From a virus: a DNA stretch of 64,000 nt. The DNA is taken from the UHGV virus genome UHGV-1332848; one strand, given 5' to 3'. The translations under genes and the position numbers were made by a program. Position 1 is the stretch's first letter. Every line of letters begins with the position of its first letter. Below are positions 13,235 to 63,760 of this stretch, one piece after another. The notes under the pieces were generated by a model, which worked only from the letters and a program-made list of their open reading frames with translations, ran no database searches and was not told the DNA's origin.

Positions 13235-13478
13235 ATAATTTACCCCTTATATAAAATATTATTTATATTTTATCATATATGAGGTTATAATACCATAATT
13301 TAACTATGAAAAGAAGTATTTTATCTATTATTTAATCCGAAAAAATAAGGGGATAGAAAGGATTTTTTTACTTTTATCCCCACTATCCCCTTTCTATATT
13401 TTCAATAAAATTCCACTTTTATTTAATTAATTATTATAATAATGCACACCATTTATAGATGTGCATAGGTTTTAATAA

Positions 13479-14234
13479 TTAAACAGCATCTGGAACTAAA
13501 GCCCAGTTAACCATTTTCTCTAAACTATCACCTAATATATCTACTTTTAAGCTGAATGGTGATACATTTTCAGCATCAAATGTAAATGCATTTTCAGCAA
13601 GAGTTGTTACGTTAGGGAATGTTAATTGCATATCAACAAAAGCTCCTTCTGCATGTGTTTTACCCTTACATCTTAATATCATAGTACATGATTCAGATAA
13701 TTCATTTGTTGCTTTAATAGTAAAGTTTAAGGCTTCTTTTGAAGTGTAGTATGTGGCAACAATTATATCTCCCTTTTTAGCTCCAGTTAGTGTCGCACTC
13801 TTTCCTGATGTAACTTGTGCTGTTGAAAGTTCCCCTATCTTTGTTCTTCTGTCCTTTTGTAATTTATAGAACTTAACTACACCAACAGGAGTTTCTTTTA
13901 AAGTGACTACTTCGTCATTTGTTGTAACCTCAAACTCATCACGATTATAGAATTTAACTGCTGATGTTTGTAATTGGCTACCATTAGCAAATGACATAAC
14001 TTCTAAAGATGTTAATTCTAAATCAAATGTACCCTCACCTTGCTTTGGCTGGTCAAAAGAAACCATGTCGCCACCATTACCTTTTGCTTTAACAGTTTCG
14101 CCTGTTGCCGAAAATTCAAATTTGTTTGCGAAATTTATATATACTTTCTCTTCATTTGTCTTGTTAGATATAAATGAAATTCTTCCAACATCTTTTATCG
14201 CAAAAATACCTACATTTTCTAATCCACTATACAT
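13479..14234 (-). CDS. Major tail protein (probable)
   Basis: 251 aa, Thr/Ser/Val-rich beta-type composition, located upstream of chaperones and tape measure gene. Confidence 0.45.
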   Translation of the reverse strand: MYSGLENVGIFAIKDVGRISFISNKTNEEKVYINFANKFEFSATGETVKAKGNGGDMVSFDQPKQGEGTFDLELTSLEVMSFANGSQLQTSAVKFYNRDEFEVTTNDEVVTLKETPVGVVKFYKLQKDRRTKIGELSTAQVTSGKSATLTGAKKGDIIVATYYTSKEALNFTIKATNELSESCTMILRCKGKTHAEGAFVDMQLTFPNVTTLAENAFTFDAENVSPFSLKVDILGDSLEKMVNWALVPDAV

Positions 14235-14280
14235 TCATTTTCCTCCTTTTAATTAATTTTTATAAATATGGCATTACCCA

Positions 14281-15090
14281 CTATTCATCAATAATTCTTT
14301 CGTTAAACCCTCTAGTGTCCATCTTTTTAACATCGGATAACATTCCACTTGATAGTAACCTCATGTCGTATCTATACTTCTCTGCCTTATTTAAAATTAT
14401 ATATGTATTATAAAGTTGATACAGGTTGAAGCTAAGTGGCTTTTCATAATCAACTGAATTTGAAGCATGACAAACATAATTAAAGACACTATATAAACTT
14501 AGTGCCTTCTTGTTTTTACTATCTTCTTTTTTATTTTTATTATAAATTGCTAACTGATACTCTCTTTCTCTTCTATCCTTAATATTCATTATCTGTTCGT
14601 AAGTTAGCTTTTTTTCTTTCTTATCTTTATTTATATCATTTTCTGTCACTTTTTTTAAATGACACATTTTCTGTATTATTTCAGATAACTGTTCAAATTT
14701 AATTTTATCCAGCCACAACATATCATCAATAACTATCTCTTTATGAACTTCGTCAGGCTTATCATCATTAGGCATATAATTTAACTTTACATTATTAGTT
14801 TCAAATACTATTTTTAAAAACTCTATACAATAATCTATTTGAATATCATCAGTTGATAAAATATCTAGTAGAAACCTTTCCTCTCCAATTGGTGGTTTGC
14901 CTAATAATGCATCTGAATTCAACCTAAATGGATTTACTAATGAATTATAGACTTCTTCGCTCATAGTAAAAACATCTTTAACTTTAATGTGATGTAGATG
15001 TTTATTATAGAAAGGTATTGGTAATCCAGTTAAACATAACCCCTTTAAATATTCACAATACTCTTCATCTTCAATATTATATAAATCCAT
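14281..15090 (-). CDS. Head-tail joining / neck protein (unassigned)
   Basis: 269 aa ORF in the operon between the capsid and major tail genes. Confidence 0.3.
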   Translation of the reverse strand: MDLYNIEDEEYCEYLKGLCLTGLPIPFYNKHLHHIKVKDVFTMSEEVYNSLVNPFRLNSDALLGKPPIGEERFLLDILSTDDIQIDYCIEFLKIVFETNNVKLNYMPNDDKPDEVHKEIVIDDMLWLDKIKFEQLSEIIQKMCHLKKVTENDINKDKKEKKLTYEQIMNIKDRREREYQLAIYNKNKKEDSKNKKALSLYSVFNYVCHASNSVDYEKPLSFNLYQLYNTYIILNKAEKYRYDMRLLSSGMLSDVKKMDTRGFNERIIDE

Positions 15091-15096
15091 AATTTA

Positions 15097-15591
15097 TCAC
15101 CCTATTTCGCCTTTAAAATCACTAAATTTAAACTGTAACTCTATAGCGTAATAATCTTTTCTGCTTGTTATTTCCTGAAAACCATTCATATAACACTTAC
15201 CAACCCAATTGCCATATGAACTATCAAAGCTTTTCATAAGTTCATCACAAATACTTATAACCCTTGTGTCACCATTTTCTAAGGAGTAAATATCATTGTG
15301 CGATATTACATAGAAGTACAAATACACATCTGCAAAGGCTGTATTTACCCTATTTGGTGCTACTCTAAAATTAGTTAATAAAAATGTCCTGACTTCCTGT
15401 ATTGTTGAATCCCAAACAACAGGATTTAAGTATATGTAGTTATTAAGCAAGGATTGTGGGTCATCTATGTCTGGTAAATCAAACGGATTTTCCTCATTAT
15501 AAACTATCATTTTTAATAAATTTTGATTTGATAATAACCTTTCTTTTATAATAGATTTTAAATCATTAATTTTTTTAAATATTGTATCCAT
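15097..15591 (-). CDS. Head-tail joining protein (unassigned)
   Basis: 164 aa; stop/start overlap with the neighbouring gene. Confidence 0.3.
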   Translation of the reverse strand: MDTIFKKINDLKSIIKERLLSNQNLLKMIVYNEENPFDLPDIDDPQSLLNNYIYLNPVVWDSTIQEVRTFLLTNFRVAPNRVNTAFADVYLYFYVISHNDIYSLENGDTRVISICDELMKSFDSSYGNWVGKCYMNGFQEITSRKDYYAIELQFKFSDFKGEIG

Positions 15592-62077: not shown

Positions 62078-62470
62078 ATGGTTTGTAAAGAGTTTATTGA
62101 TATATATGGAACTAATTTAATTGTAGAACATAATGGAACTAATATATTACTAAAAACAGATAATAAAAACATTGAAAGGAATTATTATTTAAAACTTTAT
62201 TTTAGTAAAGATGTTTTCAAAGAAATAACCAAGTGTTTAGAAAGTATTTCAAAGGATATGTGGAAAGACTTTAATTCAAAAGAAGCTGATTCGATTAGCT
62301 CAGATTATGAAGAATATTATGATAGAAAATATGATAATAACGGTTATTTAACTATAAAAGAGGGATTCTTGAGTATAGAAAGACCATGTGAGACTTGCCC
62401 ATATATGTATAAATTCAATAAAAGAAAAATGGAAAGTTTTATATATGATTTAAATAAATATAATAATTAA
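62078..62470 (+). CDS. Hypothetical protein (130 aa)
   Basis: RBS AAAGGATG; CETCPYMYK Cys pair near the C-terminus. Confidence 0.4.
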   Translation: MVCKEFIDIYGTNLIVEHNGTNILLKTDNKNIERNYYLKLYFSKDVFKEITKCLESISKDMWKDFNSKEADSISSDYEEYYDRKYDNNGYLTIKEGFLSIERPCETCPYMYKFNKRKMESFIYDLNKYNN

Positions 62471-62513
62471 TAAAAATTCTAGTAGATATTAAGAATCAAC
62501 AAGGGAGGGGAAT

Positions 62514-62780
62514 ATTATAGGAATTTTAGAAAACTCCAAAGAATTTTTTAATAACCTTACAAATAAGGAATTTGATTATTTATTAGATAAATATGATTTT
62601 GAATATACAAAAACTAAATATAAAGTAGATCAGAAGATTAGGTTTTATGATGTAAGAGGATATTTGAATTTTGGAATAATTAAAGCTATTAAGTTTTTTG
62701 GCGATAAAGTTTATTATCAAGTGTATGCAAATAATTTTATGTATGAGATAACAGAGAAAGAAATAAAAGAAATAAGATAA
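62514..62780 (+). CDS. Candidate gene with a non-AUG (ATT/ATA) start (about 88 aa)
   Basis: Strong SD AAGGGAGGGG followed 4-7 nt later by ATT ATA and an 87-codon open frame with normal composition (…ILENSKEFFNNLTNKEFDYLLDKYDFEY…). The opposite-strand track ORF 62583..62813 is low-complexity. Confidence 0.3.
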   Translation: MIGILENSKEFFNNLTNKEFDYLLDKYDFEYTKTKYKVDQKIRFYDVRGYLNFGIIKAIKFFGDKVYYQVYANNFMYEITEKEIKEIR

Positions 62781-62972
62781 AGAGTATAAACGCTTATACT
62801 TATGGTGAAACAAAAGAAAGAATCGAGCTTATGGAAGAAAGAAAATTCTTGCAAAGATATTTAAAAATGTTAGGTATACAAGACTTTGAAATAAAAAGTG
62901 AATGGCTTGTTTTTAATATTGAATAATCAATAAATAGTCTATTTTAAAAATAAATAAAAGAGGAGAGAATGT

Positions 62973-63743
62973 ATGGAAAATAATTTAATAAAAATTAATT
63001 CAAATAATAGTGAAATTATGGTTATAGACACTAGGGAAATTGCTGAGATGATGGGGATAGAACATAAATTAATTTTAAGGAAATTGGAAGGTACGAAAGA
63101 TGGAAAAACAAAAGGGATAATACCTATTTTTAACGAGAACAAAATTGCACTGGTTGATTATTTTATAGAAAGTACATATGTAGATAATAAAGGGGAAAAT
63201 AGAAAATGTTATCTATGTACTAAAATGGGTTGTGAATTTTTAGCTAATAAATTTACAGGAGAAAAAGGAATTTTATTCACTGCTAAATATGTTAAAAGAT
63301 TTAATGAAATGGAAAATCAAATGACCAAAACTCTACTATCATTCCAGATAGAAGATCCTATTGAGAGAGCTAAAGCATGGATAAAAGAGCAAGAGGAAAG
63401 TAGAAAGTTGTTAGCTGAAAAAGATGAAATTATAGAAGAATTAAGTCCATTTGCAGAATTGGCAAGGAAAAGAATAGATAATACAGGTACAGCATCACTA
63501 ACTGATGTAACAAAAACATTTAATTTAAAAAGAGGACAAATTACTTCTTGGGGAAAAGATAAGGGTTATATACATAAAACAATAAAAGAAGTTAATAAGG
63601 CAGGAGAAGATTATTTTAAAGTAGTTTGTGGAGATGGTATTCATAAAGGAATAGCAATTACTGAAGAAGGTATAAAGTTTGTTGATAAAAATTTAGATGA
63701 GATAAAGACATACCCTAGTAAATTTAAGTTACAAAATAATTAA
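62973..63743 (+). CDS. Rha-family phage regulatory protein / antirepressor
   Basis: N-terminus IMVIDTREIAEMMGIEHKLILRKLEG matches the Phage_pRha domain. Confidence 0.55.
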   Translation: MENNLIKINSNNSEIMVIDTREIAEMMGIEHKLILRKLEGTKDGKTKGIIPIFNENKIALVDYFIESTYVDNKGENRKCYLCTKMGCEFLANKFTGEKGILFTAKYVKRFNEMENQMTKTLLSFQIEDPIERAKAWIKEQEESRKLLAEKDEIIEELSPFAELARKRIDNTGTASLTDVTKTFNLKRGQITSWGKDKGYIHKTIKEVNKAGEDYFKVVCGDGIHKGIAITEEGIKFVDKNLDEIKTYPSKFKLQNN

Positions 63744-63760
63744 TTAAATTGAGGTGAAAT

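Follow-up and report, generated by a model that had tools for sequence, protein, structure and literature searches.

The virus genome UHGV-1332848 carries, in the 64,000-nt stretch analyzed here (the window; 27% GC, with two divergent gene arms), many intergenic copies of a short, asymmetric element made up of A and T only, which we call the box. The question that it raises is what reads it. The original prediction took the copies for a dedicated phage promoter or regulator-binding element, possibly recognized by the single-subunit RNA polymerase (RNAP) that the window encodes. We find the box to be far more abundant than chance allows, sharply bounded, oriented with the local genes at all but one of its sites, and set at defined distances from sigma-A promoters and Shine-Dalgarno (SD) sequences; related phages carry their own variants of it in the same contexts. 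We favor, with confidence and doubt about evenly balanced, the reading that boxes act as cis-acting operators of a recombinase-fold master repressor resembling MrpR (YopR) of phage SPβ and encoded at 58867-60018, which would make the box the clostridial counterpart of a repeated element of SPβ.

Abundance, limits, and orientation of the box

The exact 14-mer AATAATTAATTAAA occurs 24 times in the window, as compared to 0.10 times expected from dinucleotide-preserving shuffles, none of 100 of which reached 24 copies. The 16-mer with at most two mismatches occurs 48 times (4.5 expected). The abundant, non-chance 16-bp motif of the original prediction is thus real, and its coordinates are right within 1–3 nt; the copies listed at 47941, 54692, 56951, and 28101 are one-mismatch variants and that at 51575 is a two-mismatch variant, while two exact copies, at 45510 (+) and 57388 (−), were absent from its list. 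All sites are collected in Table 1. Position-by-position counts give the box sharp edges and a length of 17–19 bp, (T-W-T)AATAATTAATTAAA(W-A), beyond which the flanks show no conservation.

On a gene map of open reading frames (ORFs) with SD sequences, all 24 exact copies are non-coding or overlap a stop codon only. The box contains TAA in all three frames, so a sense-oriented copy is impossible inside an ORF, which explains the intergenic-only placement but leaves abundance and intergenic orientation unexplained. Sites are found in 26 of the 60 intergenic gaps of the window; the small-gene plus arm and the surroundings of the RNAP operon are highly occupied, the structural genes sparsely (5 of 19 structural-operon gaps).

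Co-orientation with the local genes, which had been described as invariable, holds for 34 of the 35 non-coding sites with at most one mismatch and fails at the reversed copy at 57388, whose place and orientation are kept in three relatives, L133 (1848), L132 (7247, a variant), and L220 (9905). The A/T skew of the A-rich sense strand alone predicts 72% sense orientation; 23 of the 24 exact copies are sense-oriented (P(≥23/24) = 0.003 under this skew). The 10-bp core TAATTAATTA is a palindrome with 26 occurrences in the window, 25 of which are flanked on either side by A-rich sequence in the sense direction (23 with the exact AA 5′ flank), one of which is fully reversed, and none of which is mixed. 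The asymmetry therefore belongs to the box itself.

Box geometry at promoters and Shine-Dalgarno sequences

A generic sigma-70 scan was non-discriminating in such A/T-rich DNA (133 sites as compared to 137 expected), and motif-anchored tests against control non-coding positions were used instead, with a match of at least 10/12 as the threshold for a strong sigma-A promoter. Boxes are strongly over-represented in two contexts. In the promoter-proximal one, a strong sigma-A promoter follows the box after 3–7 nt (mode 6), as at 47753, 50223, 60059, 47023, and 34308; the first three of these bear out the predicted position, like that of an UP element, 5′ of TTGACA-type promoters. Among the exact copies of five related loci, 11 of 56 have a ≥10/12 promoter at this distance, as compared to 1.8% of control positions. 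In the other context the box adjoins an SD, as had been noted and as holds at 19005, 33756, and 47078; an SD plus start codon lies within 10 nt of 18 of the same 56 copies (32%), as compared to 8.7% of controls. In the window, box and start codon are 12 to ∼520 nt apart, too wide a range for a fixed translational signal.

When the set is widened to 141 boxes from ten genomes, 23% have a ≥10/12 sigma-A promoter within 30 nt downstream, as compared to 1.4% of controls, and the spacing from box to −35 is bimodal, at 5–8 nt and 16–18 nt. These two modes are about one helical turn apart, and the box therefore keeps one helix face relative to the promoter. A strong promoter lies between the members of 19 of the 28 direct-repeat box pairs spaced at 40–150 nt, and as a rule the second box adjoins an SD. 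The canonical early unit is box, −35/−10, box, SD, gene.

Concerted variation among relatives

Conservation of the motif in related phages, suggested as a check, was found. Loci of relatives are given here as L numbers. The same box in the same orientation occurs in L001, L133, and L134, whose RNAPs are 83–85% identical to that of the window. L128 (RNAP identity 80%) has the variant AAAAATTAATTAAA, L126 (71%) has ATAAATTAAAAATAATA, and L002 (72%) has AAAATAAATT(G/A)A. Ordered instead by identity of the MrpR-like protein, L133 (75%) has AATAATTAATTAAA in common with the window, L132 (52%) has AATAAATAATTAAA, L220 (37%) has AATAATAAATTAAA, and phage c-st (29%) has AAAATTAAATTAAA. All lineage variants are co-oriented with genes and occupy the same two contexts. 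The 3′ half, AATTAAA, is kept in every variant, the differences being confined to the 5′ half. The variants are lineage-specific at orthologous positions (e.g. 5′ of the RNAP gene and 5′ of the HU gene), and this concerted change points to a factor that the phage encodes and that co-evolves with the box, as opposed to one of the host.

Phage c-st is a complete, annotated SPβ-like TubZ phage-plasmid with YopQ, YopR, MazF, and YonO homologues, and its box architecture is that of the window. It has 37 exact copies of the core 12-mer AAATTAAATTAA, all co-oriented: 29 on the plus strand in the plus (early) arm and 8 on the minus strand in the minus arm. Many promoters of c-st have a separate consensus UP-like tract, ATATTTTAAAAA, between box and −35, so that the UP element there is not the box. 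L132 has ∼20 boxes in 20 kb of its early region.

No multi-copy oriented box was found within ±10 kb of the RNAP gene in ∼75 loci whose YonO-type RNAPs are 35–45% identical to that of the window, nor in L125, L004, and L127. The exact 16-mer gave scattered single chance matches in IMG/VR among the matches listed, an uninformative outcome, and homologue searches of IMG/VR that started from the single RNAP protein or from an MrpR alignment retrieved no related loci; the corresponding search of Joint Genome Institute (JGI) metagenomes retrieved one 3.5-kb contig.

A side observation concerns mosaicism: in blastn comparisons of the window with L001, L133, L134, and L128, a box lies no more than 20 nt from 9 of the 23 non-coding homology-block ends, as compared to 15% of non-coding control positions. 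Boxes may mark mosaic junctions, with block ends non-independent across the relatives.

The lysogeny module and the repeated element of SPβ

The plus arm holds the SPβ lysogeny module in SPβ order (YopP-like, YopQ-like, and MrpR/YopR-like genes), followed by a gene for a MazF-like toxin. The PF22822 match of the 58867-60018 protein is above the curated cutoff, BLASTP aligns it with SPβ YopR at 27% identity (E 6e-5), and the best PDB matches of its profile, 8bj6, 8bjv, and 8a0a, are all YopR/MrpR. An MrpR-like gene is present in every box-bearing phage-like locus that covers the relevant region (the window, L133, L132, L220, and c-st), and a YopQ-like gene shares its operon in all relatives. 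The lack of an MrpR match on L128, L126, and L002 was discarded as evidence, since the same search missed the 37%-identical L220 protein. This MrpR-like protein, which the original prediction did not mention, appears to be the best candidate for a box-binding factor.

The element that MrpR binds in SPβ is known as the SPβ repeated element (SPBRE). MrpR (YopR) binds this 15-bp intergenic repeat at 10 promoter regions, by chromatin affinity purification sequencing (ChAP-seq) and electrophoretic mobility shift assay, and represses PaimR and PyosX (PMC10516654; preprint 10.1101/2022.10.21.513154); the PaimR promoter comes after an SPBRE site, and the SPBRE of yonP is a ChAP-seq peak (PMC10516654). 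We recovered SPBRE from the SPβ genome as 12 intergenic copies, all 12 co-oriented with genes. At aimR the order is SPBRE-N6-TTGACT-N17-TATTAT; at yonX it is SPBRE-N6-TTGATT...TATAAT, followed by a second SPBRE adjoining the SD; and copies at yopM, yopV, and yonX-2 adjoin an SD. A copy stands 5′ of yonP and a variant 5′ of yonO, with the window boxes at 33756 and 33492 in the orthologous positions.

The two systems are thus alike in having a YonO RNAP, yonP-yonO-yonN synteny, and a yopP-yopQ-yopR module, and in a repeated intergenic element of ∼15 bp that is co-oriented with the downstream gene and lies ∼6 nt 5′ of a sigma-A −35 or adjoins an SD, with paired copies bracketing a promoter (yonX). 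They differ in that SPBRE sits in a longer conserved promoter-like context, TAGACA...TATAAT, whereas the box is free-standing and all A/T. Because architecture and positions match while sequence does not, the box is a positional and putatively functional analogue of SPBRE and not a member of its sequence family.

Boxes as proposed operators of an MrpR-like repressor

The operator reading is favored because the SPβ lysogeny module is present in the same order as in SPβ, because every phage-like MrpR-like locus examined carries its own box, because early genes and the RNAP operon are rich in boxes and structural genes poor in them, and because the geometry of the box at sigma-A promoters and SDs equals the SPBRE layout. 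Which protein binds the boxes, and that binding represses, we infer from homology and architecture.

On this proposal, the repressor would occupy the oriented boxes in the plasmid-prophage state. An early unit would have its first box 5–6 nt 5′ of a strong host sigma-A −35 (a helical turn further in some relatives) and its second, a direct repeat, between the transcription start site (TSS) and the SD; repressor on both boxes, possibly bridged by oligomers, would block RNAP recruitment or escape. The block would silence the lytic genes, including the operon of the yonP-like gene and the YonO-like RNAP, and hence the late genes. Solitary boxes before SDs inside operons could serve as orientation-dependent roadblocks, and the reversed box at the yopQ-mrpR promoter could provide autoregulation.

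Several observations weigh against this proposal. About one-third of the boxes adjoin an SD with no promoter nearby, including some in the late region (at the capsid gene, 19005, and at 14248), and SPβ has no late-region SD-adjoining SPBRE copies; window copies also lie beside terminators, which follow the boxes at 13422 and 25961, and three of them fall in the gap downstream of the RNAP gene where, by analogy with SPβ, the YonO promoter would be expected. The SPBRE core AWAATATGTATA has no meaningful similarity to AATAATTAATTAAA, and copies are 3–4 times denser here (at least 35 sites per 64 kb, as compared to 12 per 134 kb in SPβ). The box shifts by only 1 nt while identity of the MrpR-like protein drops to 37%, and the invariant 3′ half would also suit a promoter with a conserved initiation region. 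The L219 locus has an MrpR-like gene in a non-phage context and no box. Finally, SPβ MrpR shows modest sequence specificity in vitro, and an additional factor is suspected (PMC10516654).

Other explanations of the box

One rival reading makes the box the promoter of the YonO-like RNAP, a recognizer suggested in the original prediction: an all-A/T 16-mer recognized and melted without a sigma factor, with specificity in its 5′ half, initiation in AATTAAA, and mRNAs with short leaders. The window encodes a YonO homologue with the catalytic motif DFDSD, and the box is oriented, compact, and easily melted; at 30511 and 28103 the order terminator-box-SD leaves no room for a sigma-A promoter; the three copies in the RNAP-downstream gap lie in the equivalent of the SPβ YonO initiation region; a copy stands ahead of the capsid gene; and box divergence loosely parallels that of the RNAP, as in T7 and T3 (the same box at 83–85% identity, 1 nt off at 80%, and further off at 71–72%). 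Yet in SPβ the late operon is the sole target of YonO, which starts at one site (PMC5467207) and has no promoter defined in the literature, and we found no similar box adjacent to that site (TSS between published primers, record 60330-60550); the sequence TTAATTAATTA, ∼120–370 nt 5′ of this TSS interval, is within chance expectation. Boxes are densest at early genes, where they bracket strong sigma-A promoters in pairs at fixed helical phase, and this density, together with the ∼75 box-less YonO-type loci and L125, L004, and L127, argues against an RNAP promoter. So do the boxes that precede the RNAP gene itself, the terminators that follow almost at once after 13422 and 25961, and the one conserved reversed copy, at a sigma-A promoter. 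We therefore do not favor the 910-aa enzyme as recognizer and consider its promoter a distinctly unlikely identity for the box. The broader idea of a dedicated phage element bound by a phage factor is upheld by exact conservation, orientation, concerted variants, and fixed geometry.

That factor could be another phage protein, acting as activator or repressor: the HU/IHF-like YonN homologue, which would bend promoter DNA as an architectural protein, the YopQ-like protein (DGQHR/DndB-like), Rha, or the MerR-like protein. An asymmetric, A/T-rich and TpA-rich site helically phased to the −35 is typical of factors of the IHF/HU type, an HU-like gene is found in every box-bearing relative with a known RNAP region and is missing beside the RNAP in box-less L004 and L127, YopQ-like genes accompany mrpR-like genes as described above, and the extra specificity factor suspected to work with MrpR (PMC10516654) would find a place here. 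HU divergence, though, is out of step with that of the box: at 64% identity L001 keeps the box of the window, L128 has a variant at 88%, and L126 has another HU subtype at 28%. Nothing implicates Rha, and SPβ offers no precedent for YopQ, Rha, or MerR on a repeated element, as compared to MrpR on SPBRE by ChAP-seq. We regard a binder from this group as rather unlikely. An explanation with no dedicated trans-factor, in which host machinery would use the box as an UP element for the RNAP α subunit where it lies 5′ of a −35, and as an A/U-rich translational enhancer or a three-frame stop insulator where it lies 5′ of an SD, with intergenic copying keeping it uniform, seems to us very unlikely. 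The window box does occupy −56 to −41, the position of an UP element, A/U-rich leaders enhance translation, TAA is present in all three frames, and the homology-block ends near boxes (9/23 as compared to 15%) are compatible with recombinational spread; but A/T-richness accounts neither for 24 identical, sharp-edged 14-mers nor for concerted, lineage-specific variants, the c-st box is distinct from the UP-like tract, and start codons lie at 12–520 nt. The insulator form was rejected, as the L002 and L126 variants have no three-frame stops. We give least credence, and very little, to an RNA-level processing site in polycistronic mRNA, cut by e.g. the phage MazF-like endoribonuclease or a host RNase to yield short leaders or uncouple segment stability. 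It would suit the strict co-orientation with transcription, the third of boxes immediately 5′ of an SD, the conservation of a MazF/PemK gene by mrpR-like in the window, L132, L133, L220, and c-st, and the boxes at 13422 and 25961 just 5′ of terminator hairpins. Many boxes, however, lie 5′ of a −35 at fixed helical phase, outside the transcript of the gene that they precede, others come directly after terminators (30511 and 28103), and the reversed copy is conserved at the yopQ promoter. Known MazF recognition sites are 3–7 nt, far shorter than the 14–16 nt of the box.

Genes and other features of the window

The window is part of an SPβ-like phage-plasmid of ∼130 kb from a Clostridia-class host, an assignment based on relatives that sit on contigs of 127–155 kb. 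Its nearest genome match is a Bacillota metagenome-assembled genome (MAG). A megablast search of 7 kb against phage records gave no match, and Rfam and ARAGORN found no known RNA and no tRNA in the window. Among the encoded proteins are TubR/TubZ, FtsK-like, Mrr-like nuclease, HU-like, and Ant-like proteins. The divergence point of the arms, 36016-42924, holds plasmid-prophage hardware, of which c-st has a similar set in similar order.

The 910-aa RNAP falls in a PHROG family of unknown function (847 profile positions) and contains GADFDSDQ. It is 22% identical to SPβ YonO over 483 residues, with DFDSD opposite the DNDGD of YonO, and has thousands of homologues, one carrying the RNA-dependent RNA polymerase family PF05183. 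At least 80 Clostridia genomes and MAGs (Lachnospiraceae, Oscillospiraceae, Ruthenibacterium, Robinsoniella, and others) encode homologues with 35–45% identity, and the top repeats in several of these loci are tRNA-derived. The neighbors of the RNAP gene in relatives include YonK, YonJ, YonG, and YonD homologues, an HU-like gene in the yonN position, TubZ, Rep, and MerR-like genes. In c-st (NC_007581, L215-L218, 163615-167548) the annotation splits the yonO homologue into CST179 (N-terminal) and CST177 (C-terminal), with CST178 between them, an arrangement suggestive of an insertion, intein, or intron within the RNAP gene.

The ∼1-kb non-coding gap 3′ of the RNAP and HU genes (28999-29996, minus sense), which holds three boxes, corresponds to the yonN-yonK gap of SPβ, the region of YonO initiation. 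Its repeats are a direct one of 56 nt (29458-29513 and 29921-29976; sense ...CAGACACTTRTATKAGGTTTGACTATTGAT...) and a tandem one of 33 nt (29501-29566), and a long hairpin (29218-29285) is also present. The 56-nt repeat, retained in part by L128 and L001, is a conceivable alternative candidate for the late promoter. A low-threshold Rfam scan flagged the hairpin as a miRNA, a spurious match. Relatives have tRNA genes (Tyr, Trp) 3′ of the RNAP gene, at 13866-13952 in L001, 14495-14568 in L128, and 19283-19356 in L127; the window has none. Those of L001 and L128 sit in the equivalent gap, and the L128 box begins 3 nt past the tRNA 3′ end.

Two box sites on the minus strand have unusual surroundings. 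After the box at 34231 comes GAGGGGGTGAGTAT-ATG-TAA (34180-34200), a strong SD and start codon with an immediate stop, i.e. a minimal ORF. At 35225-35330 a promoter with a box in its spacer is followed ∼40 nt downstream by an intrinsic terminator (35260-35230); this resembles a ∼70-nt small-RNA unit beside the Rep-like gene, possibly a replication-control RNA.

Around the lysogeny module, the plus-strand gene at 60176-60778, directly after mrpR-like, encodes a MazF/PemK toxin domain with a C-terminal extension of ∼85 aa, with no obvious antitoxin gene upstream. The same order of mrpR-like and MazF genes is found in L132 and L133, and the MazF gene lies just 3′ of the module in L220 and near yopQ/yopR in c-st. 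A 72-aa ORF on the minus strand (56605-56823) between the YopP-like and YopQ-like genes takes the place that HTH_3 (Cro/CI-type) regulators occupy in L132, L133, and L220; it probably encodes another regulator of the switch.

Table 1. Box sites and genes located in the window (exact, the 14-mer AATAATTAATTAAA; wHTH, winged helix-turn-helix)
Feature	Position	Strand	Context
Box, exact	13422-13435	−	43 nt past stop of upstream gene; intrinsic terminator ∼30 nt further on
Box variant AAAAATTAATTAAA	14248-14261	−	adjoins SD of gene 13479-14234
Box, exact	19005-19018	−	overlaps upstream stop codon; adjoins AGGAGG of 339-aa capsid-like gene (YonB size)
Box	25961		followed by terminator
Box variant AAAAATTAATTAAA	28103-28116	−	directly after terminator 28146-28128; 5′ of zf/YonJ-like genes
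Box, exact	29120-29133	−	within large non-coding gap 3′ of RNAP-HU genes
Box, exact	29289-29302	−	followed at once by conserved long hairpin 29218-29285
Box, exact	29987-30000	−	overlaps stop of 64-aa gene 29996-30190
HU/IHF-like (YonN-like) gene	30202-30477	−	
Box, exact	30511-30524	−	directly after terminator-like hairpin; 33 nt 5′ of HU-like (YonN-like) gene
YonO-like two-barrel single-subunit RNAP gene	30742-33474	−	910 aa
Box, exact	33492-33505	−	start codon of YonO-like RNAP gene 17 nt downstream
Box, exact	33756-33769	−	adjoins SD of 76-aa gene in yonP position
Box, exact	34231-34244	−	downstream partner of 34308; sigma-A promoter in between
Box, exact	34308-34321	−	TTGCAA-17-TACAAT begins 5 nt downstream
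Box, exact	35300-35313	−	in spacer and −10 of TTGACA(35326)-17-TAAAAT(35298)
Rep-like gene	36016-37215		
MerR-like gene	37520-38254		
TubR-like wHTH gene	38729-39061		
TubZ gene	39062-40165		
Mrr-like nuclease gene	40196-40732	−	
FtsK-like gene	41269-42924		
Box variant AATAATTATTTAAA	45395-45408	+	
Box, exact	45510-45523	+	start of gene 45544-46749 is 20 nt downstream
Box, exact	46821-46834	+	
Box, exact	47023-47036	+	3 nt 5′ of TTTACA-17-TATAAT; upstream partner of 47078
Box, exact	47078-47091	+	9 nt past −10; adjoins SD of gene 47109-47297
Box variant AATAATTATTTAAA	47549-47562	+	
Box, exact	47622-47635	+	followed by TTGTAA-17-TATAAT
Box, exact	47753-47766	+	6 nt 5′ of TTGACA-18-TATAAT (12/12)
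Box variant AAAAATTAATTAAA	47942-47955	+	
Box, exact	50223-50236	+	4 nt past upstream stop; 6 nt 5′ of TTGACT-16-TATAAT
Box, exact	50890-50903	+	start of gene 50952-51272 is 48 nt downstream
Box, two-mismatch variant GAAAATTAATTAAA	51575	+	
Box variant AATAATAAATTAAA	52913-52926	+	adjoins an SD
Box variant GATAATTAATTAAA	54692-54705	+	
Box, exact	55574-55587	+	5′ of YopP-like integrase-family gene
YopP-like tyrosine recombinase/integrase-family gene	55619-56584	+	PF00589, E 5e-24
Box variant TATAATTAATTAAA	56950-56963	+	5′ of TTGACT promoter of gene 57094-57366
Box, exact, the sole reverse-oriented copy	57388-57401	−	3 nt 5′ of TTTGCA(57405-57410)-18-TATAAT(57429-57434), yopQ-mrpR-like operon promoter
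YopQ-like gene	57472-58854	+	460 aa; operon with mrpR-like; E 5e-11 vs SPβ YopQ
MrpR/YopR-like gene	58867-60018	+	383 aa; proposed box-binding repressor; PF22822, E 2e-9
Box, exact	60059-60072	+	6 nt 5′ of TTGACA-17-TAATAT (MazF-like gene promoter); upstream partner of 60146
Box variant AATAATAAATTAAA	60146-60159	+	adjoins SD of MazF-like gene
Box variant AATAATTATTTAAA	61542-61555	+	
Box, exact	61778-61791	+	
Box variant AATAATTAATAAAA	62462-62475	+	overlaps a stop codon
Box, exact	63735-63748	+	contains stop codon of Rha-like gene; adjoins next SD

Significance

If the boxes are operators of the MrpR type, the SPβ lysogeny switch, a recombinase-fold repressor with a repeated element, reaches well beyond Bacillus and extends to clostridial phage-plasmids of ∼130–190 kb, including the botulinum type C neurotoxin-converting phage c-st, in a much denser version with a set two-box layout that brackets promoters. 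Early transcription units and probable repressor targets could then be mapped directly from the boxes in almost unannotated phages, and studies of the unstable lysogeny of toxin-converting phages would gain a concrete starting point; moreover, the natural series of box variants and repressor variants would be of use in learning how a recombinase fold reads DNA. The search for the YonO promoter is narrowed, in that its most conspicuous candidate is argued against, or else identified should experiments disagree. In the latter case the box would be the first promoter consensus for the YonO RNAP family, and the enzyme of clostridial SPβ-like phage-plasmids would transcribe most of the genome and not a single late operon.

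Comparison with other known systems

Like the promoters of the T7, T3, and SP6 RNAPs, the box is a compact, oriented, multi-copy intergenic element of an RNAP-encoding phage, with a conserved 3′ and a variable 5′ part. YonO, however, is a two-barrel enzyme unrelated to T7 RNAP, with a single late start site in SPβ, and boxes lie at early genes and around host promoters and are absent from most loci with YonO-type RNAPs. UP elements are degenerate A/T-rich binding sites of the α C-terminal domain of RNAP, at −40 to −60. The box resembles them in being A/T-rich and directly 5′ of the −35, with A-tracts at about −44 to −41, but UP elements are not repeated as identical 14-mers and do not lie beside SDs, which one-third of the boxes adjoin. 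The start-associated sequences (SAS) that are reported from Cluster K mycobacteriophages likewise form a repeated, oriented 13-bp motif just 5′ of the start codons of a subset of genes; SAS, though, contains the SD and lies 3–8 nt from the start, whereas the box lacks an SD, lies at 12–520 nt, and at two-thirds of its sites is not SD-proximal.

The stoperators of Cluster A mycobacteriophages are said to be the sites of the L5 gp71 repressor. They are 20–35 asymmetric sites of 13–17 bp in short intergenic regions, in one orientation relative to transcription and with one at the early promoter, and their consensus varies between related phages. The repressors differ: gp71 is a helix-turn-helix protein, non-homologous to the recombinase-fold MrpR-like candidate of the window, and acts in a host of another phylum. 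No gp71 homologue was seen in the window, though no search aimed at one was made. Many window boxes, moreover, stand at a fixed phase 5′ of promoters and not just inside transcription units. As in the stoperator system, the window has many asymmetric, intergenic, in-operon sites in one orientation, about one-third of them between a stop codon and the next SD.

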